A stretch of 64,000 bases of DNA. Origin: Caulobacter sp. Its GTDB lineage: Bacteria; Pseudomonadota; Alphaproteobacteria; Caulobacterales; Caulobacteraceae. Shown here in pieces: positions 4,605 through 33,374 of the stretch. A program made the position numbers and the translations under genes. Location of the stretch: assembly GCA_021741355.1 (NCBI GenBank), contig JAIOXZ010000012.1, forward strand, positions 18,409 to 82,408. The letters run 5' to 3'. How positions within the stretch are numbered: position 1 is the first letter of the stretch; each line of letters opens with the position of its first letter. The notes beneath the pieces were generated by a model. The model did not search any database. It had not been told where the DNA came from and saw only the letters and a list, made by a program, of their open reading frames with translations.

Positions 4605-4697
4605 GGCCCGCTTCTAGCGCGGTTCGAAGGCTTCCGCGAGACCGGCAAAGGGCCTAAACAGTCGTTTGAAATTACACCGAAAATCGGGAGACCAACC

Positions 4698-5699
4698 ATG
4701 ACCGTGTCGCGCGAGATCCGCCTCAAGAGCCGCCCCGTCGGCGTGCCGACCGCTGACAACTTCGAGCTGGCGACCGTCGAGCTGCCCGCGCCGGGCGCCG
4801 GCGAGGTCCAGGTGCGCAACACCTGGATGACCGTCGATCCCTACATGCGCGGCCGCATGAACGACGTGAAGAGCTACAGCCCGCCCTTCCAGCTGGGCAA
4901 GGTGATGGACGGCGGCGCGGTCGGCGAGGTGATCGCCTCCAATGACCCGTCGTTCACCGTCGGTGATCTGGTCCAGAGCGGCTTCGGCTGGCGCGAGGCG
5001 TTCAACGCCCCGGCCTCGGCCGTGCAGAAGCTCAACACCTTCGGCCTGCCGCCGCAGACCTTCCTCGGCATCGCCGGCATGCCGGGCATGACCGCCTGGG
5101 TCGGCCTGCTGAAGATCGCCGCACTGAAGGACGGCGACGTCGTCTTCGTGTCCGGGGCTGCCGGCGCTGTGGGTTCGGTCGTGGTGCAGATCGCCAAGAT
5201 CAAGGGCCACACGGTCATCGGCTCGGCCGGCGGCGCGGAGAAGGTCGCCTTCCTCAAGTCGATCGGCTGCGATGAGGTCATCGACTACAAGGCCGAAGCG
5301 GACCTGACCGCCGCCCTCGCCCGCGTCGCGCCCAAGGGCATCGACGTCTATTTCGAGAATGTCGGCGGCGAGCACATGGACGCGGCCATCGCCAACGCCC
5401 GCCCGTTCGCCCGCTTCGCCCTGTGCGGCATGATCAGCCAGTACAATTCGACCGGCGAGATGCACGGCACGAAGAACCTGATCCAGGCGGTCGGCAAGAG
5501 CCTGAAGCTGGAAGGCTTCATCGTCTCCAACCACTTCCAGCACATGCCCGAGTTCCTGCAGGACATGTCCGGCTGGATCAACGACGGCAAGCTGAAGTGG
5601 ACCGAGACCATCGACGAGGGCATCGAGAACGCCCCCGGCGCCTTCCTCAAGCTGTTCAAGGGCGAAAACACCGGCAAGATGCTGGTCAAGCTGAGCTGA
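4698..5699 (+). CDS. NADP-dependent oxidoreductase (MDR, prostaglandin dehydrogenase/CurA-like)
   Basis: TVDPYMRGRM, GMPGMTAWVGL, VSGAAGAVGS, YFENVGG, NTGKMLV. Confidence 0.92.
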   Translation: MTVSREIRLKSRPVGVPTADNFELATVELPAPGAGEVQVRNTWMTVDPYMRGRMNDVKSYSPPFQLGKVMDGGAVGEVIASNDPSFTVGDLVQSGFGWREAFNAPASAVQKLNTFGLPPQTFLGIAGMPGMTAWVGLLKIAALKDGDVVFVSGAAGAVGSVVVQIAKIKGHTVIGSAGGAEKVAFLKSIGCDEVIDYKAEADLTAALARVAPKGIDVYFENVGGEHMDAAIANARPFARFALCGMISQYNSTGEMHGTKNLIQAVGKSLKLEGFIVSNHFQHMPEFLQDMSGWINDGKLKWTETIDEGIENAPGAFLKLFKGENTGKMLVKLS

Positions 5700-8264: not shown

Positions 8265-9638
8265 TCAGCTCGCCTCGCGCAGGCTGTCGCGGCCGGCCTT
8301 GAGGCGTTCGGCCACCAGGAAGGCCAGCTCCAGCGCCTGTTCGCCGTTCAGACGCGGGTCGCAGTGGGTGTGGTAGCGGTCGCCGAGCTCGCCCTCGAGC
8401 ACCGCGCGGGCGCCGCCCGTGCATTCGGTGACGTTCTGGCCGGTCATTTCCAGATGTACGCCGCCGGGGTGAACCCCCTCGGCCTCGGCGACATCGACGA
8501 AGCCCTTCACCTCGGCGAGGATCTTGTCGAACGGCCGGGTCTTGTAGCCGTTGCCGGCCTTCAGCGTGTTGCCGTGCATCGGGTCGGTGGCCCAGACCAC
8601 CGAGCGGCCGGCCTTCTTGGTCGCGGCCATCAGGCGCGGCAGGCGTTCGGCGATCTTGTCGGCGCCGAACCGGCCGATCAGCGTCAGCCGCCCGGGCTCG
8701 TTGGCCGGGTTCAGGGTATCGATCAGCCGCAGCAGGTCGTCCGGCTCCAGCGTCGGGCCGACCTTCATGCCGATGGGGTTCTTGACCCCGCGGGCGAACT
8801 CGATGTGCGCCCCGTCCAGCTGGCGCGTGCGCTCGCCGATCCACAGCATGTGGGCCGAGGTGTCGTACCAGTCGCCCGAGGTCGAATCGATCCGCGTCAT
8901 CGCCTCCTCGAAGCCGAGCAGCAGCGACTCGTGGCTGGTGAAGAACTCCACCTGCTTCATGCCCGGATGGCTCTCGGGCGTGACCCCGATGGCGGCCATG
9001 AAGGCCAGGCTCTCGCTGATCTTGTCCGACAGCTCGCGGTAGCGCGCGCCCTGCGGACTGTCCGCGACAAAGCCCAGCGTCCAGCGGTGGATGTTGTGCA
9101 GGTCGGCGTAACCGCCGCCGGCGAAGGCCCGCAGCAGGTTCAGCGTCGAGGACGCCTGGCCGTAGGCCTTCAGCAGCCGCTCGGGGTCCGGCGCCCGCTC
9201 GGCTTCATTGAAGTCCATGCCGTTGATGTTGTCGCCGCGATAGGACGGCAGTGTCACCCCGTCGATCGTCTCGATCGGCTCGGAGCGCGGCTTGGCGAAC
9301 TGGCCGGCGATGCGGCCGACCTTCACCACCGGCTTGCCGCCGGCGAACGTCAGCACCACCGCCATCTGCAGGATCAGGCGGAAGGTGTCGCGGATGTTGT
9401 CCGCGTGGAATTCCTTGAAGCTCTCGGCGCAGTCGCCGCCCTGCAGCAGGAAGGCCTTGCCCGCCGCCACATCGCCCAGCAGGCTCTTCAGCCGCCGCGC
9501 CTCGCCGGCGAACACCAGCGGCGGCATCCGCCGCAGTTCGGCCTCGACACGCTCCACCGCCCCCGCATCCGGATAATCCGTCGGCAGGTGCTTGGCGGGC
9601 TTGGCTCTCCAGGACGACGGGGTCCAGCGCTCGGTCAT
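8265..9638 (-). CDS. class II 3-deoxy-7-phosphoheptulonate (DAHP) synthase
   Basis: [49 protein letters not shown]. Confidence 0.96.
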
Positions 9639-27203: not shown

Positions 27204-27315
27204 GCTCCCCACTGCGTGGGGAGCTGTCACGCGGAGCGTGACTGAGGGGAGTTGAAGTGCGCCGACTCTCCTCCACCGCCTCCGGCGGTCCCCCTCCCCG
27301 CGAAGCGGGGAGGAT
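27204..27315. repeat. CIR-type repeat with non-matching (hybrid) arms
   Basis: Left arm GCTCCCCACTGCGTGGGGAGCTGTCAC...; right arm ...GGTCCCCCTCCCCGCGAAGCGGGGAGGAT; GACTC at 27264. Confidence 0.8.
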
Positions 27316-28718
27316 CAGCCGACGCCGAACAGCGTCTTCAGGTACGGATTGAGCAGCCGGCCGTCCGGGTCCAGCTCGCGGCGGATCTCGAGGAAGTCGT
27401 TCCAGCGCGGATAGAGGGCGGCGAGGTCCGGGCCCTTGAGCGAATGCAGCTTGCCCCAGTGGGGCCGGCCGCCGTGGCGGCGGAAGATCGGCTCGATCAG
27501 CTCGAAGAAGAACTGGTAGTCGTCGCGATAGTAGGCGTGGACGGCCACCGACCCGCGCGGCTCGCCCTGGAACGGCGACAGCCAGGCGTCGTCCGGCGCG
27601 ATGCGGCGGACCTCGATCGGGAAAAAGACGTCGGGACGGTGCTTCTCGATCGTCTCGACCACCTCTTTCAGCGCCGCCAGCTGGGTCTCGTGCGGCAGGT
27701 GGTATTCCATCTCGTTGAACCGGACCGGGCGTTCGGTTGAGAGCAGCTTCCAGCCCTCATCGACCGCCGTCTCGGGCTTTGTCCCGCCGAGCAGCGCCTT
27801 CGCGGCGGCCTTGCGCAGACCGGTCGAGAAGCCGAGCAGGTTGCGCAGGCCCTTCAGCGCATCGAGGAAGGCGTCGTCCTGACTGGACTCGCGCACCGTC
27901 GCCGGCTCGTCCGTCTCGTCATGAGAGATGTTGGCCGCGAGCCCGGTGAAGGGCACGGCGTAGAACTCGAAGTTACGGTGGTCCGCCCAGCGCTCCTCGG
28001 CCTTCGCCATCGCCTCCTCGAACGGCTCCAGCCACACCCGGCGGCGGAGGCGGCGGTTGGCCGTCGTCGACAGGCGCGCCTTCGAGATGATCCCCAGCGC
28101 GCCCAGGGACACCCTGGCGGCGCTGAACAGCTCCGGACGGGTCGTTGCGTCGCAATCCAGCACCGCGCCACCGGCAGTGACCAGGGTCAGGGCCGTCACG
28201 TCGCCGTGGATCGCCTTCAGCGTGCTGCCGGTGCCGTGGGTCGCGGTGCCGAGCGCGCCGCCGAGCGACTGTTTGTTGATGTCGGGCAGGTTGGCCATCG
28301 CCCGGCCCTTCGCGGCGAGCGCCGGGCCGAGCGCGCCGAGCCGGGTGCCGGCACGGACCGTGGCCTCGTCACCATCCCAGCCGACGACGCCGCTCATGGC
28401 GTCGAGCGAGACCAGTGTCCCGTCGGTGGCGCAGAGGCCGGTAAAGCTGTGGCCGGCTCCGGTGACGCGCACCGGCGCCGCGCCGGCCTTGAGCAGCGCG
28501 GACAGTTCCGTCTCGTCCTTCGGCGCGCTGCGCTGGGCCGGATAGCTGTGCTGGATGCCTGACCAGTTGCGCCAGACCGTGTGGCCCTTGCCGTCGGTCG
28601 AGGGCGGCGCGGGTGGTTCGGGCTTTTCCCGGTTGGCCCCACCGATGGCGACCGCGCCGCCTCCGATGACCGCGGTCGCCGCCCCGCCCGCGATCAGCGC
28701 TCGCCGCCTCGAGATCAT
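27315..28718 (-). CDS. Tat-exported FAD-linked oxidase (ALO/GULO family; SphC-like)
   Basis: SRRRALI Tat motif, WRNWSG, GAGHSF, THGTG, RPHWGK. Confidence 0.88.
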   Translation of the reverse strand: MISRRRALIAGGAATAVIGGGAVAIGGANREKPEPPAPPSTDGKGHTVWRNWSGIQHSYPAQRSAPKDETELSALLKAGAAPVRVTGAGHSFTGLCATDGTLVSLDAMSGVVGWDGDEATVRAGTRLGALGPALAAKGRAMANLPDINKQSLGGALGTATHGTGSTLKAIHGDVTALTLVTAGGAVLDCDATTRPELFSAARVSLGALGIISKARLSTTANRRLRRRVWLEPFEEAMAKAEERWADHRNFEFYAVPFTGLAANISHDETDEPATVRESSQDDAFLDALKGLRNLLGFSTGLRKAAAKALLGGTKPETAVDEGWKLLSTERPVRFNEMEYHLPHETQLAALKEVVETIEKHRPDVFFPIEVRRIAPDDAWLSPFQGEPRGSVAVHAYYRDDYQFFFELIEPIFRRHGGRPHWGKLHSLKGPDLAALYPRWNDFLEIRRELDPDGRLLNPYLKTLFGVG

Positions 28719-28731
28719 GTCGTCCCCCGAC

Positions 28732-29214
28732 CTAGCCGGCCGACTCTTCGTGGTCCGCCATGAAGCGTATGAGAGCCTCCAGATCGGCCGGGGTGCAAGT
28801 CGCACACTGCCCGCCGGCCGGCATGGCGTTGAATCCGAGGATGGTGTGGTCAACGAGCACCGGCATGCCCTGCTTCAGGCGCGGCGCCCAGGCGGCGGCG
28901 TCATGCACCATCGGCGCGCCGGACTCGGGTATGGCGTGGCAGGCCTTGCAGGAGGTGTCGTATAGCCCGGCAAGACGCGCGTCGGCAGGCTTCAGGAGGG
29001 CGGCCTGCTCCGGCGTGGGGGCGGGTTTGGGTGCGGGCGAGCAGGCGGCGAGTGTCGTTGCCAGCAGGGTCGCGCTGAGGGTGCGTGCGTGGTTCGAGAC
29101 GCGGCCTGACGGCCGCTCCTCACCATGACGAGCGGTTCTGCCATCCGACCATCTCGTCATCCTGAGGAGCGCGAAGCGCGTCTCGAAGGACGCACGAAGC
29201 CCATGCAATCCCAT
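28732..29214 (-). CDS. lipoprotein cytochrome c5 (SphB-like), with a palindrome inserted in-frame at the N-terminus
   Basis: LAAC lipobox, CKACH heme motif, MPAGGQCATC; GGAGG 7 nt before ATG 29214; no ATG/GTG/TTG between the repeat and the lipobox. Confidence 0.85.
   Translation of the reverse strand: MGLHGLRASFETRFALLRMTRWSDGRTARHGEERPSGRVSNHARTLSATLLATTLAACSPAPKPAPTPEQAALLKPADARLAGLYDTSCKACHAIPESGAPMVHDAAAWAPRLKQGMPVLVDHTILGFNAMPAGGQCATCTPADLEALIRFMADHEESAG
29084..29196. repeat. 113-bp bipartite palindromic element inside a CDS
   Basis: Arms of 49 and 44 nt in inverted orientation (CGTCATCCTGAGGAGCGCGAAGCGCGTCTCGAAGGACGCACG type); 20-nt spacer. Confidence 0.88.
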
Positions 29215-29216
29215 CC

Positions 29217-30113
29217 CTAGCCCTCCAGGCCGTGCAGCCGCCGTGCGGCCGTCAGGGTGTTCTGCAGCAGGCAGGCGATGGTCATCGGCCCGACCCCGCC
29301 CGGCACCGGCGTGATCCAGCCGGCGACCGCTTTCGCCTCGTCGAACGCCACGTCGCCGACCAGACGGGTCTTGCCCTCGGCGGCGCGAACCGGGTCGCGG
29401 GACGGAAAGCGGGTGATGCCGACATCGATCACGGCCGCGCCCGGCTTGATCCAGTCGCCCCGGACCATCTCGGCGCGTCCGACCGCGGCCACAAGGATAT
29501 CGGCCTGCCGGCAGATGCCGGGCAGGTCGCGACTGCGGCTGTGGGCGATCGTTACGGTGCAGTCCGCAGCCAGCAGGAGCTGGGCCATCGGCTTGCCCAT
29601 CAGGTTCGAGCGACCGATCACCACAGCGTTCAGCCCTCGCAAGTCGCCCAGCGCGTCCTTGAGCAGCATCATACAGCCGACCGGCGTGCAGGAGGTCAGG
29701 GCCGGCAGGCCGCTGGCCAGCCGGCCGGCGTTGGTCACGGTCAGGCCGTCGACATCCTTGTCCGGCGAGATGGCGGCGACGATTCGGGCCTGGCTGAGAT
29801 GATCGGGGACCGGGAACTGGACCAGCAGGCCGTGGATCGCCGGGTCGGCGTTCAGCCGGCCGACCAGCGCCAGCAGATCGGCCTCGCTGACATCGCCCGG
29901 CAGCTTGTGGGTTTCCGAATACATGCCGGCGGCTTCGGTCTGGACGCCCTTGTTGCGCACATAGACCTCGCTGGCCGGGTCTTCGCCGACCAGAACCACC
30001 GCCAGGCCGGGCGTGACTCCATGATCGGCCTTCAGCGCAGCGACCTCTGCAGCCACCTGCGCCCGAAGTCGTTCAGAGAACGCCTTGCCGTCGATGATCG
30101 TCGCATGCGTCAT
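29217..30113 (-). CDS. folD: methylenetetrahydrofolate dehydrogenase/cyclohydrolase
   Basis: YVRNK, KDVDG, PCTP-like [26 protein letters not shown]. Confidence 0.97.
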
Positions 30114-30182: not shown

Positions 30183-30677
30183 ATGGACATCAACCGCCTC
30201 TTCACCCGCTTTGCAAACCAGGTCTCGAAATGGGCGGGGCGGCCCTTCTCGTTCGCCCTCTGTGTCGCCGGCGTGGTGGCCTGGGCATTGACCGGGCCGG
30301 CCTTCAACTATTCCTCGAACTGGCAGCTGGTGATCAACACCTCGACGACCATCATCACCTTCCTGATGGTGTTCCTGATCCAGAACACCCAGAACCGCGA
30401 CAACGCCGCCCTGCACGCCAAGCTGGACGAGCTGATCCGGGTCGGCGATTCCGACAACAGGTTCATCGGCATCGAGCATCTGACCGATCAGGAGCTGGAG
30501 GTGATCCTGGCGGAGTGCGAGCGCGCCGCGAAGGACCTGCACCAGGAACTGCACAACGAGCGGCGCAAAGCCGCCGCGGCCGGGACGGCCAAGGACGATG
30601 ACGCGCCCGGCCATCCCATGCCTGCCAGCGGAAAGCCTCCGGCGCGCAAGCGCGCGACGAAGCGCAAGCCCGCCTAG
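30183..30677 (+). CDS. low-affinity iron permease family (Fet4-like) protein
   Basis: WQLVINTSTTIITFLMVFLIQNTQNRD...KLDELI. Confidence 0.88.
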   Translation: MDINRLFTRFANQVSKWAGRPFSFALCVAGVVAWALTGPAFNYSSNWQLVINTSTTIITFLMVFLIQNTQNRDNAALHAKLDELIRVGDSDNRFIGIEHLTDQELEVILAECERAAKDLHQELHNERRKAAAAGTAKDDDAPGHPMPASGKPPARKRATKRKPA

Positions 30678-30708
30678 CCTTCGGGCGGGGGCGTGCTATC
30701 TGCGGGGG

Positions 30709-31890
30709 ATGGCCTCGACCTCCGCAACCTGTGCCGACGTCGTCCTGGTGGGCGGCGGGCTGGCCAACGGACTGATCGCCCTGCGCCTCAAGGCGCTGCG
30801 GCCGGCGCTCAAGGTCATCATCGTCGAGCATGGCGAAACCCTGGGCGGGCGGCACACCTGGAGCCATTTCGCGACGGACGTCAGTGCAGCGATCAGCACC
30901 TGGCTCGACCCGCTGATCGTGCACCGCTGGGAGGGCTATGACGTCCGCTTTCCGGCCCACCGCCGGACGCTGACGACGCCCTATCGCTCGGTGACCTCCG
31001 ACCGCTTCCACGAGGTCGTTCATGCGGCGCTCGGCGACGACGCCTGGACCGGTGTCGCCGTGACGGACGTGCGGCCCGATCGCGTGGTGCTGGAAGACCA
31101 GCGGGTGATTGAGGCCCGCTGCGTGATCGACGGCCGCGGGCCGCGCCCCAACTGGGACCTCGTGCTGGGATGGCAGAAGTTCGTCGGGCTGGAGGTGGAG
31201 CTCGCGGCGCCACACGGCCTGTCCCGCCCGATCATCATGGACGCCACGGTCGACCAGCTCGACGGCTACCGGTTCCTCTACGCCCTGCCCTTTTCACCGA
31301 CCCGGCTGCTGATCGAAGACACCCGCTACGCCGACGGCCACGATCTCGACCGCGAGACGCTGCGGCGGGACATAGAGGCCTACGCCGCCGCCCAGGGCTG
31401 GACCATCAAGTCCGTCGTGCGCGAGGAGATCGGGGTGCTGCCCATCGCCCTGGCCGGCGACATCGACGCCTACTGGCGGGCCTCCGATCTGCCAGAAGTC
31501 GGGCTGCGCGCCGCCCTGTTCCAGCCGATCACCGGCTATTCGCTGCCGGACGCCGCGCGACTGGCGGACGAGATCGCAGACTTGCCGGACCTGACCACGG
31601 CGACAGCGCGGGCCTGCGTCGAGGCGCGCTCGAAGCAGCGCTGGGCGGAGCGCGCCTACTACCGGCTGCTCAACCGAATGCTGTTCAAGGCCGCGCAGCC
31701 TGGTCGCCGCTATGTCGTGCTGGAGCGGTTCTACCGCCTGTCGCAGGGGCTGGTGGAGCGGTTCTACGCCGGGCGGATCACGCTGGCCGACAAGGCCCGC
31801 ATCCTGATAGGCAAGCCACCGGTGCCCGTCGCGGCTGCCCTGGCGGTGCTGTCCGAACGATCGGTAATTCCTGGGGACGCAGACACATGA
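30709..31890 (+). CDS. crtY: lycopene beta-cyclase
   Basis: VGGGLANGL, HTWS, QKFVG, MDATV.Q.DGYRF.Y, EDTRY, GYSLP. Confidence 0.95.
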   Translation: MASTSATCADVVLVGGGLANGLIALRLKALRPALKVIIVEHGETLGGRHTWSHFATDVSAAISTWLDPLIVHRWEGYDVRFPAHRRTLTTPYRSVTSDRFHEVVHAALGDDAWTGVAVTDVRPDRVVLEDQRVIEARCVIDGRGPRPNWDLVLGWQKFVGLEVELAAPHGLSRPIIMDATVDQLDGYRFLYALPFSPTRLLIEDTRYADGHDLDRETLRRDIEAYAAAQGWTIKSVVREEIGVLPIALAGDIDAYWRASDLPEVGLRAALFQPITGYSLPDAARLADEIADLPDLTTATARACVEARSKQRWAERAYYRLLNRMLFKAAQPGRRYVVLERFYRLSQGLVERFYAGRITLADKARILIGKPPVPVAAALAVLSERSVIPGDADT

Positions 31891-33374
31891 GCAAGCCGCG
31901 CGCGGCTGTTATCGGTTCCGGCTTCGGCGGCCTGGCCCTGGCCATCCGTCTGCAATCGGCCGGGATCGACGTCACGGTGTTCGAACGCCGCGACAAGCCG
32001 GGCGGCCGCGCCTACGTCTGGGAGGACGAGGGCTTCATCTTCGACGCGGGTCCCACGGTCATCACCGACCCGGACTGCCTGAAGGAGCTGTTCACGCTCA
32101 GCGGTCGCAAGATCGAGGACTATGTCGAGCTGCTGCCGGTCGACCCGTTCTATCGCCTCGTCTGGGAGGACGGCGACGTCTTCGACTACGTCAACGACCA
32201 GGACGAACTGGACCGTCAGATCGCCGCCCGCAACCCCGCCGATGTCGAGGGCTATCGCCGCTTCCACGCCTATTCCGAAGAGCTCTACCAGAAGGGCTAT
32301 GTCGAGCTCGGCGCCGTGCCGTTCCTCGACTTCGGCCGCATGATCGCCGCCGCGCCCGCGCTGATGAAGCTGCAGGCCTGGCGCAGCGTCTATGACAAGG
32401 TGGCGAGCTTCGTGAAGGACGAGCACGTTCGCCAGGCGCTGTCGTTCCACAGCCTGCTGGTGGGCGGCAGCCCGTTCGCCACCTCCTCCATCTATGCCCT
32501 GATCCATGCCCTGGAGCGGCGCGGCGGCGTGTGGTTCCCGCGCGGCGGAACCGGAGCGCTCATCCGGGCTCTGGTGAAGCTGTTCGAGGACCTCGGCGGC
32601 AGGATCGAGCTCGATGCGCCGATCTCGAAGATCACCACCGCCGGCGGCCGGGTGACCGGCGTCATTCGCCATGACGGCGAATTCGAAGCGTTCGACACCG
32701 TCGCCTCCAACGCCGACATCATGCACACCTACCGCGAGCTGCTGGTCGACGATCCGCGCGGCAAGGCGGCCAGCAAGGCGCTGGAGAAGAAGCGCTGGAG
32801 CCCCTCGCTGTTCGTCATCTACTTCGGGCTCAAGGCGGAACACCCGCAGATCCGGCACCACACCATCTGCTTCGGACCGCGCTATCGCGAGCTGATCGGG
32901 GACATCTACAACAAGGACACGCTGTCGGAGGACTTCTCCCTCTACCTGCACAATCCCTGCGCCACCGACCCCGGCATGGCGCCGCCCGGGGGCAGCGCCT
33001 TCTACGTGCTGTCAGTCGTGCCCAACCTGGAAACCGCCGACATCGACTGGGCGACGGAGGGTGAAGCCTATCGCGACAAGATCCTGAAATACCTCGAGGA
33101 TCGCTACATCCCCAACCTGGCGCGCGACCTCGTCACCTGCCGCATCTTCACGCCGGACGACTTCACAACAGAGCTGAACGCCTGGAACGGCGCGGCCTTC
33201 TCGCTGGAACCGATCCTCACCCAGAGCGCCTGGTTCCGCACCCACAATCGCGACGACAAGATCCCCAACCTCTACTTCGTCGGGGCCGGCACCCATCCGG
33301 GCGCGGGCATCCCGGGGGTCGTCGGGTCGGCCAAGGCGACCGCGGCGCTGATGATCCCGGACCTCACGCCGTGA
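31887..33374 (+). CDS. crtI: phytoene desaturase
   Basis: IGSGFGGLA, FDAGPTVIT, YFVGAGTHPGAGIPGVVGSAKATA. Confidence 0.96.
   Translation: MSKPRAAVIGSGFGGLALAIRLQSAGIDVTVFERRDKPGGRAYVWEDEGFIFDAGPTVITDPDCLKELFTLSGRKIEDYVELLPVDPFYRLVWEDGDVFDYVNDQDELDRQIAARNPADVEGYRRFHAYSEELYQKGYVELGAVPFLDFGRMIAAAPALMKLQAWRSVYDKVASFVKDEHVRQALSFHSLLVGGSPFATSSIYALIHALERRGGVWFPRGGTGALIRALVKLFEDLGGRIELDAPISKITTAGGRVTGVIRHDGEFEAFDTVASNADIMHTYRELLVDDPRGKAASKALEKKRWSPSLFVIYFGLKAEHPQIRHHTICFGPRYRELIGDIYNKDTLSEDFSLYLHNPCATDPGMAPPGGSAFYVLSVVPNLETADIDWATEGEAYRDKILKYLEDRYIPNLARDLVTCRIFTPDDFTTELNAWNGAAFSLEPILTQSAWFRTHNRDDKIPNLYFVGAGTHPGAGIPGVVGSAKATAALMIPDLTP

Follow-up and report, generated by a model that had tools for sequence, protein, structure and literature searches.

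A palindromic repeat has probably been inserted just after the second codon of a cytochrome c5-family lipoprotein gene in the window (the whole 64-kb stretch of Caulobacter DNA that was analyzed), where it would be translated from the ATG at 29214 and removed along with the signal peptide. An in-frame insertion of a repeat within the region coding for the signal peptide had been put forward in the original prediction, and it was borne out by the homology of the start, by the frame kept in 14 of the 14 loci carrying the element, by a deletion derivative in locus L202 and by the dispersed nature of the repeat family. The locus comprises the following features.

29217..30113, minus strand: folD (methylene-THF dehydrogenase/cyclohydrolase), the upstream gene (ORF and Pfam).
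29222..29226, minus strand: Shine-Dalgarno sequence GGAGG within the 3′ end of folD, 7 nt 5′ of the ATG at 29214.
28732..29214, minus strand: cytochrome c5-family lipoprotein gene, 160 aa from the ATG at 29212-29214 (ORF, Pfam and orthologous start).
29041..29085, minus strand: ancestral part of the signal peptide, i.e., R44, the h-region TLSATLLATT and the lipobox LAAC, with Cys58 at 29041-29043 (orthologue alignment).
28936..28950, minus strand: haem-binding CKACH motif of the mature cytochrome (translation; invariant across the alignment).

The folD product matched Pfam THF_DHG_CYH and THF_DHG_CYH_C (E 1e-39 to 1e-64), and the gene ends in ...CTGGAGGGCTAG (...CTG GAG GGC TAG) with its stop codon at 29217-29219 of the minus strand. 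The ATG of the cytochrome gene lies 2 nt past this stop. The ORF reads MGLHGL-RASFETRFALLRMTRWSDGRTARHGEERPSGRVSNHA-RTLSATLLATTLAAC and ends at 28732; a cytochrome c domain (Pfam Cytochrome_CBB3, PF13442, E 7e-11) takes up its last 100 residues, and "cytochrome c5" is the name given to its homologues in the database sources. The CxxCH haem site, the cytochrome c domain and the conserved Cys pair of a cytochrome c5 were all present, with GQCxxC invariant. The gene is under purifying selection, the mature part differing between the two clades described below by 0.16/0.19/0.35 at the first, second and third codon positions. The stretch R44-TLSATLLATT-LAAC aligned with the entire 17-18-aa signal peptides of element-free orthologues, and the alignment identified the positive n-region, the h-region and the lipobox ([LVI][ASTVI][GAS]C) of a lipoprotein signal, with an n-region of 43 aa that is atypical. 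The cytochrome gene is followed on its 3′ side by an ALO/FAD-binding oxidase gene (27315-28724). Beside folD, carotenoid genes are placed divergently (30598-33374, plus strand) as a 430-aa ORF and an overlapping ORF, the later part of which resembles phytoene desaturase; L202 harbors a Lycopene_cycl gene at the equivalent position.

The insert has a nested structure, with the parts given below.

29086..29194, minus strand: canonical nested-palindrome repeat, 109 nt, TGCGTCC...CCACGCA (family termini, paralogues and fold).
29156..29194, minus strand: left hairpin unit of the CC/GG type, 39 nt, TGCGTCCTTCGAGACG-CGCTTCGCG-CTCCTCAGGATGAC (covariation).
29130..29155, minus strand: spacer (loop), 26 nt, a variable stretch covering codons 21-28 (divergence between clades).
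29086..29129, minus strand: right hairpin unit, inverted, of the GG/CC type, 44 nt, GTCATGGTGAGGAG-CGGCCGTCAGGCCG-CGTCTCGAACCACGCA (palindrome analysis and family arms).
29195..29208, minus strand: a locus-specific stretch of 14 nt (TTGCATGGGCTTCG) that separates codon 2 from the canonical element.

The ends of the repeat family are sharp (TGC/G[TG]SSTTCGA ... TCGAASS[AC]C/GCA in 54 metagenome copies among the matches listed), and the canonical element was therefore placed at 29086-29194. The 14 nt preceding it fall outside the family consensus and are absent in the element-free loci L009 and L006 (ATGGGACGA...); they are homologous in clade B and in the type-1 loci of clade A. Together, the 14 nt and the 109-nt element amount to 123 nt, a multiple of three. 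The original prediction had described a stop-free palindrome of 113 bp and 37 codons; the in-frame palindrome stands, but with a canonical length of 109 nt and, in all, 123 nt (41 codons) of added DNA. The ORF opens with 20 nt (29195-29214), ATGGGATTGC ATGGGCTTCG, in which the start region seems to have been duplicated imperfectly in tandem as a 10-nt unit (8 of 10 positions identical). Such a duplication may have been the source of the 14 nt, and it is not clear in the clade A loci.

The outer arms (29079-29103 and 29177-29201) are 25 nt long and 84% complementary, and the inner arms (29114-29132 and 29153-29171) are 19 nt long and 89% complementary. The predicted RNA fold of the palindrome reached -74.3 kcal/mol as compared with -50.9 ± 3.7 for shuffled sequences (z = -6.36), none of the 200 shuffles being as stable. 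A long hairpin pairing arm with arm was predicted at -69 kcal/mol, against about -44 for two separate hairpins, and would be the more stable RNA form. Each arm motif occurred twice in the window, where 0.02-0.12 occurrences were expected, and no further copy of the element was found in the 64 kb. Rfam gave no match to the element either at the gathering score (whole window, two tRNAs only) or at E ≤ 10 (28950-29350). A role as terminator or promoter was considered and set aside, as no promoter-like or terminator-like site was predicted for the element.

The status of the insert was evaluated in 80 orthologous loci, which were chosen by the mature domain alone since predicted proteins depend on start calls; folD lies 5′ of the cytochrome gene in most of them. 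Homologues fall into many of 154-160 aa (Caulobacter-type), which have in common ASFETRFALLRMT-(8 variable residues)-RHGEERPSGRVSNHA, and many of 112-124 aa in which the signal is of the usual M(x)R...LAAC form. In the element-free loci, the folD stop is separated from the lipobox Cys codon by 44-51 nt, and this stop overlaps the ATG or is 1 nt away from it. Loci L009, L006 and L005, which are element-free, read GGAGGcc-TGA-g-ATG GGA CGA ACC, followed in L009 by CTT, and L009 has a signal of 17 aa (MGRTLII...VGC). The window reads GGAGGgc-TAG-gg-ATG GGA [123 nt] CGC ACC CTC, and thus differs from its closest element-free orthologues by an additional 123 nt (41 codons) after codon 2. The motif GGAGG, carried by the last codons of folD, is found at the same spacing in element-bearing and element-free orthologues. 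By this homology, the SD and ATG 29214 are the ancestral start, because element-free relatives use the same SD and ATG beside the folD stop. This agrees with the original prediction, in which ATG 29214 was the start preceded by an SD, GGAGG, 7 nt upstream.

The ancestral signal was more likely 17 aa long (MGRT...), and the extra DNA would therefore comprise 41 codons and not 37. An ancestral signal of 21 aa with an insert of 111 nt, as had been assumed earlier, appears less likely, as MGLHGL is present in no element-free relative. It had also been expected that orthologues would lack the extra residues. Element-free relatives are indeed short, but a whole clade has the long N-terminus, and the insertion is therefore old; this distribution does not refute an insertion. 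The long N-terminus could alternatively be an ancestral extension of this gene, or even the source of the repeat family, with no insertion at all; many orthologues, down to 62% identity, share it. This reading is extremely improbable and appears already contradicted by the comparison, since the outgroup and some ingroup orthologues have a plain signal of 15-18 aa abutting the folD stop, and since copies of this element, sharply bounded by TGC...GCA, are also found in unrelated surroundings between flanks that have nothing in common.

The element is present at this site in 14 loci (the window, L001, L002, L003, L004, L008, L030, L033, L039, L040, L043, L045, L055 and L059). All 14 are open from a start adjacent to folD up to the lipobox Cys, over 51-62 codons; the starts lie 0-6 nt from the folD stop and comprise 12 ATG and one TTG, with L002 having ATG or an adjacent GTG. 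Independent indels among the carriers always sum to a multiple of three: L004 is 4 nt longer in the arm and 13 nt shorter in the loop, L008 is 15 nt longer, and L059 exceeds L033 by 3 nt. The left arm of type 2 is read in a frame other than that of type 1, which is corrected by a hairpin 4 nt longer. Among unrelated copies of the family, about 26% of the six frames per copy are free of stops. The arm also contains a second candidate start.

29158..29160, minus strand: internal in-frame ATG in the left unit, the start chosen by a gene caller for the 142-aa protein P0003.

Gene-caller starts vary, with 142 aa for P0003 and 141 aa for P0014 (both from the internal ATG) against 160 aa. The choice of ATG 29160 for the protein of the window and for P0014 raises the alternative that the element is an untranslated or partly translated leader, with the protein starting at the internal ATG (142 aa) and the upstream frame open by accident. 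The left arm is free of stops in two of three frames, so that an open frame at one locus would not be very improbable. However, no SD was found in the sequence before ATG 29160, and the codon lies within the hairpin stem. Its equivalents are ATA in L001 (the closest genome, which has no other usable start), ATC in L030 and GTG in L002, and it is out of frame in L004. Locus L202 (1500-1520), the mature protein of which is 94% identical, reads TAGggATGGGC-TCGAACCACGCA-ATC and encodes MGSNHAIC...; it retains the same ATG joined straight to only the last 12 nt of the element and is an in-frame deletion derivative. Together with the ancestral state of the upstream ATG and SD, these observations make a leader quite improbable; the internal ATG is dispensable and is probably not the true start.

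Read-through from ATG 29214 is thus the best-supported reading, because the frame is conserved, the internal ATG is dispensable, the deletions are in frame and the gene is under purifying selection; translation itself is deduced from these comparisons. The window offered no in-frame ATG, GTG or TTG between ATG 29160 and the lipobox Cys at which translation could begin downstream of the repeat, in keeping with the original prediction. In the GTGTC subtype (L004, L033, L059 and L040), an in-frame GTG is present in the right terminus, and L030 has an ATG there; a start at this position, giving a normal 20-aa signal, is possible in these five loci. Locus L010 (9899-9971) carries a 24-nt in-frame scar derived from both termini of the element, CCTTCGACACG..CGAACC. 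The scars in L010 and L202 show that the element can be lost by internal deletion with the gene left unbroken.

The element belongs to a repeat family which, on the evidence of its copies, is real and dispersed. A profile built from the 14 site copies and run on the Caulobacter loci identified six paralogues elsewhere in these loci, and a motif scan of metagenome contigs found at least 120 stretches. In the lake-water metagenomes from which the assembly was derived, the depth rose from 18-34 to 144-408 over the element, at the borders of which many metagenome contigs diverge; assemblies of metagenomes are broken up by the repeat. Runs X1 and X2 showed an 8- to 12-fold increase in contig depth over window positions 29081-29191, and one assembly breaks inside the element (records 9 and 11). 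No conserved flank or target duplication was found beyond TGC...GCA in the 54 metagenome copies among the matches listed.

Each unit has conserved flanks, invariant among unrelated copies, around a variable G+C-rich hairpin. In 46 units of equal length, 98.2% of the cells of the hairpin were paired, as compared with 82.8% in shuffles and 32-58% in slid controls; compensatory changes were present in 8 of the 16 pairs, with 83 double-change cells against 21.6 in shuffles. The earlier observation of a swap between arms (CC..GG in one, GG..CC in the other) was confirmed by covariation: among 61 full elements, the free arm was CC/GG in 17, GG/CC in 29 and GC/GC in 15, and was discordant in none. 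Covariation within the arm units likewise upheld the view that each arm folds by its own hairpin. An inverted partner within 13-43 nt, the range of spacer lengths in the family, was found for 59 of 142 units. The sequence GANTC is absent from the window copy and was present in 4 of 60 family copies, against 31% expected from shuffles.

Other copies of the family are mostly intergenic and often lie directly 5′ of a gene start. In L102 (451-4145), a GTA-like or phage-like head-tail cluster, four motif matches and three paired elements were all located in spacers, between the genes for prohead protease, capsid, head-tail connector, tail completion and tail tube. A census of the repeat inside coding sequences, which had been called for, yielded one further case: in L139 (159-263), a 105-nt copy (35 codons) is in frame within queA, and the Pfam Queuosine_synth match spans the insert. 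The queA copy is, from this match, a second intragenic case and one located in a mature enzyme. Candidate intragenic copies in L101, L118, L181 and L200 were rejected, being on inspection just upstream of the real starts.

Searches for related sequences and names had the following outcome. A tblastn search with E. coli RayT over about 2 Mb of loci gave no match. The 41-aa peptide of the element yielded no candidates as a query, and an exhaustive HMMER search of 1.84 billion representatives, for which the query is too short to be sensitive, matched cytochrome c5 cluster P0027 alone. Because only this cluster was matched, the exact repeat peptide does not appear to be common in predicted proteins, as far as so insensitive a query can indicate. 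Spurious ORFs in Bradyrhizobium and related bacteria probably often encode similar repeat-derived peptides (...LLRMT, ...PQDE, ...RLEGR). A plasmid collection gave one short, uninformative match to a Roseibium plasmid, and a text search of the literature with motif strings returned unrelated primers alone. The accessible literature, including that on RAYT/REPIN and on palindromes in signal peptides, gave no name, function or mobilizing enzyme for the family, which seems to be an abundant alphaproteobacterial nested-hairpin repeat.

A tree from flanking proteins placed the carriers in two sister Caulobacteraceae clades: in clade A, 8 of 8 loci have the element, and in clade B its distribution is patchy. 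L003, with the element, and L009, without it, are nearest neighbors whose flanking proteins are 93.2% identical. We favor a single ancient insertion, with subsequent losses or allelic replacement, because clade B and the type-1 loci of clade A have homologous sequence in the 14-20 nt 5′ of the element. Several independent gains at a hotspot, in place of a single gain with later losses and exchanges, seem somewhat unlikely. The patchiness in clade B, the different left flanks of types 1 and 2, the different REP-like hairpin lying in frame at the same place in L007 and the similar repeat peptides in L018 and P0044 are compatible with such gains; against them stand the homologous 14-20 nt and the scars in L010 and L202, which point to loss by deletion. 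The question is one of history alone and does not touch the nature of the element.

Two structural versions occupy the same site, one in L033/L030/L059/L040 and the other in L039/L043/L045/L055, although the flanking proteins are 95% identical. The alternative version is found as a paralogue a few kb away, type-2-like in L055b (4632-4734) and type-1-like in L059b (8303-8442), which suggests exchange or gene conversion between copies. With regard to the insertion site, L007 (9900-9960) carries a shorter and different REP-like hairpin, CCCTTCCCCC..GGGGAAAGGG, read as PFPLPLEGKGLG in frame right after MGR; the motif of this hairpin occurred seven times in about 2 Mb of loci. PLQGEGL-related peptides are present at the same position of the signal in L018 (3-80) and P0044. 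Beside the folD stop, the n-region of the signal peptide appears to be a place where such elements land repeatedly.

The single old insertion fits the following course of events. The 109-nt nested palindrome, consisting of two inverted REP-like hairpin units with a spacer and derived from the dispersed family, would have entered just past codon 2 in the common ancestor of the two sister clades. An element that is normally intergenic would have come to lie inside a coding sequence because the ATG abuts the folD stop and leaves no intergenic space. The element and the 14 nt would add 123 nt, read in the element's one stop-free frame, and translation from the ancestral SD and ATG 29214 would pass through the element to give a 57-aa signal peptide with an n-region of 43 aa and a net charge of about +5. 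In the Sec/Lgt/Lsp pathway, the signal of a lipoprotein is cleaved ahead of the lipidated Cys, and the predicted removal of the extension has this basis: once the precursor had been exported by Sec and lipidated at Cys58, the entire extension would be cut away by signal peptidase II, leaving the mature cytochrome unchanged. The insertion and the in-frame losses would have been tolerated because the extension is cleaved off and the mature protein is unaffected. The extra peptide is hence most likely an n-region extension of a cleaved signal, export and cleavage being deduced from the signal itself. On the other side, an n-region of 43 aa is very unusual for a lipoprotein, and gene callers sometimes take the internal ATG (P0003, P0014). 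In the original prediction, the insertion was taken as a route to new peptide sequence, as in the Rickettsia elements; the in-frame insertion holds, but probably nothing was added to the mature protein, as the peptide lies in the cleaved part.

The pattern of divergence within the element differs from that of the gene. Between clades, the left arm diverged by 0.05-0.08 per site and the right arm by 0.13-0.18 per site at all three codon positions, as compared with 0.33-0.56 in the loop and 0.35 at the third positions of the mature gene. Divergence in the arms is thus 3- to 8-fold lower than at the third codon positions of this gene, and codon periodicity is absent. On these values, a purely neutral passenger does not explain the conservation of the arms; they would be held near the family consensus either by exchange with other genomic copies or by constraint on the motif. 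A contig from a run labelled RNA covers the folD end and the element (29083-29294), which hints at co-transcription of folD and the cytochrome gene.

It is therefore to be asked whether the element is kept for a function of its RNA or DNA at this locus, with translation as a side effect, a reading compatible with the proposed removal along with the signal peptide. Located 20 nt past the start of the ORF, the stable hairpin might adjust the expression of cytochrome c5 relative to that of folD through slower early elongation, RNase processing or stabilization of the upstream mRNA; alternatively, the element might be a protein-binding site. Such a function would accord with the conservation of the arms at all codon positions, the invariance of the motif flanks in unrelated copies, the retention of the element at the site in two clades and the RNA-labelled contig. 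Nevertheless, no harm is visible in the related lineages, at least five in number (L005, L006, L009, L010 and L202), from which the element has disappeared wholly or almost wholly, its presence differs between the nearest neighbors L003 and L009, and neither a terminator or promoter nor an Rfam match was found. The predicted accessibility of the SD and AUG was the same in carriers and non-carriers, on which ground masking of the ribosome-binding site by the element was rejected. Exchange between paralogues can also conserve the arms, since genomes with 95% identity differ in element type and paralogues of both types exist. A function at this locus is hence unlikely. We likewise doubt that the element is a selected cis-acting module within the coding sequence whose arm conservation reflects function; such a module could set cytochrome c5 output relative to folD through the predicted -69 kcal/mol hairpin, or act through binding of this widespread alphaproteobacterial motif by a host protein. 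On this doubtful reading, the long, basic n-region might also alter lipoprotein targeting.

The removal of a tolerated insert with the signal peptide remains the preferred explanation, and the case provides unusually clean comparative evidence for an intergenic-type repeat surviving within a gene. At the folD/cytochrome junction, which lacks intergenic space, the sole tolerant target would be the portion of the protein that the cell discards once it has been exported. The case also carries a warning for annotation, as gene callers place the start differently (160 aa vs 142 aa) and N-termini are lengthened by the peptides that repeats encode. It documents, furthermore, an abundant alphaproteobacterial nested-hairpin family, the unit structure of which is strongly backed by covariation. 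If the arms were selected at this locus, a structured nucleic-acid element and a coding sequence would share the same bases.

Several known systems are comparable to the element. The extended signal peptide region (ESPR) of autotransporters is a very long, charged n-region before a normal h-region and is a conserved protein motif. The extension described here is likewise very long and charged ahead of a normal h-region, but it shows no constraint at the codon level and would be a by-product of a DNA repeat. With the REPIN/BIME elements of gamma-proteobacteria, the family shares a conserved, imperfect-hairpin unit of 20-45 nt and inverted pairing around a spacer to form a larger hairpin of about 100 nt; its copies, too, are mostly extragenic and found within operons, e.g., in the GTA-like cluster of L102. 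It differs from REPINs in its unit motif, which lacks the GTAG head, and the search of about 2 Mb of loci yielded no RAYT transposase; the family seems to be alphaproteobacterial, and the window copy is intragenic.

[quoted passage not shown] From these descriptions, CIR is the nearest named Caulobacter family to the element: both are about 110 bp long with two inverted-repeat arms and a linker (here 109 nt, with units of 39 and 44 nt and a 26-nt spacer) and occur in the same bacterial class. By the same descriptions the element is set apart from CIR, having no copy of the GANTC methylation site that is conserved in a terminal loop of CIR, one open frame and an intragenic position.

ERIC/RU elements, Correia elements and Coxiella MITEs are small repeats with open frames that are occasionally fused in frame to genes, often at the ends (PMC2759123; PMC2229807; PMC5896051). 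The element shares the in-frame fusion; however, those repeats have terminal inverted repeats with duplications of TA or other targets, whereas no target-site duplication was detected in the 54 copies among the matches listed.

The Rickettsia palindromic elements (RPEs) are described as palindromic repeats of about 100-150 bp that lie free of stops inside protein-coding genes (Ogata et al., 2000; Claverie and Ogata, 2003; PMC2229807). By these descriptions, such insertions are tolerated since the protein is not disturbed by the peptide they add, and the element resembles them in being a palindromic repeat in a coding gene, in its stop-free frame and in probably leaving the protein undisturbed. 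It is RPE-like as a member of a palindromic repeat family that is in frame and free of stops in a functional coding sequence, with translation deduced from the frame, and that is absent from some orthologues; it is not an RPE proper, as the host belongs to the Caulobacteraceae and not to Rickettsia. The host here is free-living with 68% G+C, the sequence family is, going by description, unrelated, most copies are intergenic, and the window copy lies in a cleaved signal peptide and not on the surface of a mature protein. The phenomenon is thus already known from RPEs and from intragenic ERIC, Correia and Coxiella elements, and the element at the folD/cytochrome c5 junction is a fairly ordinary case of it.
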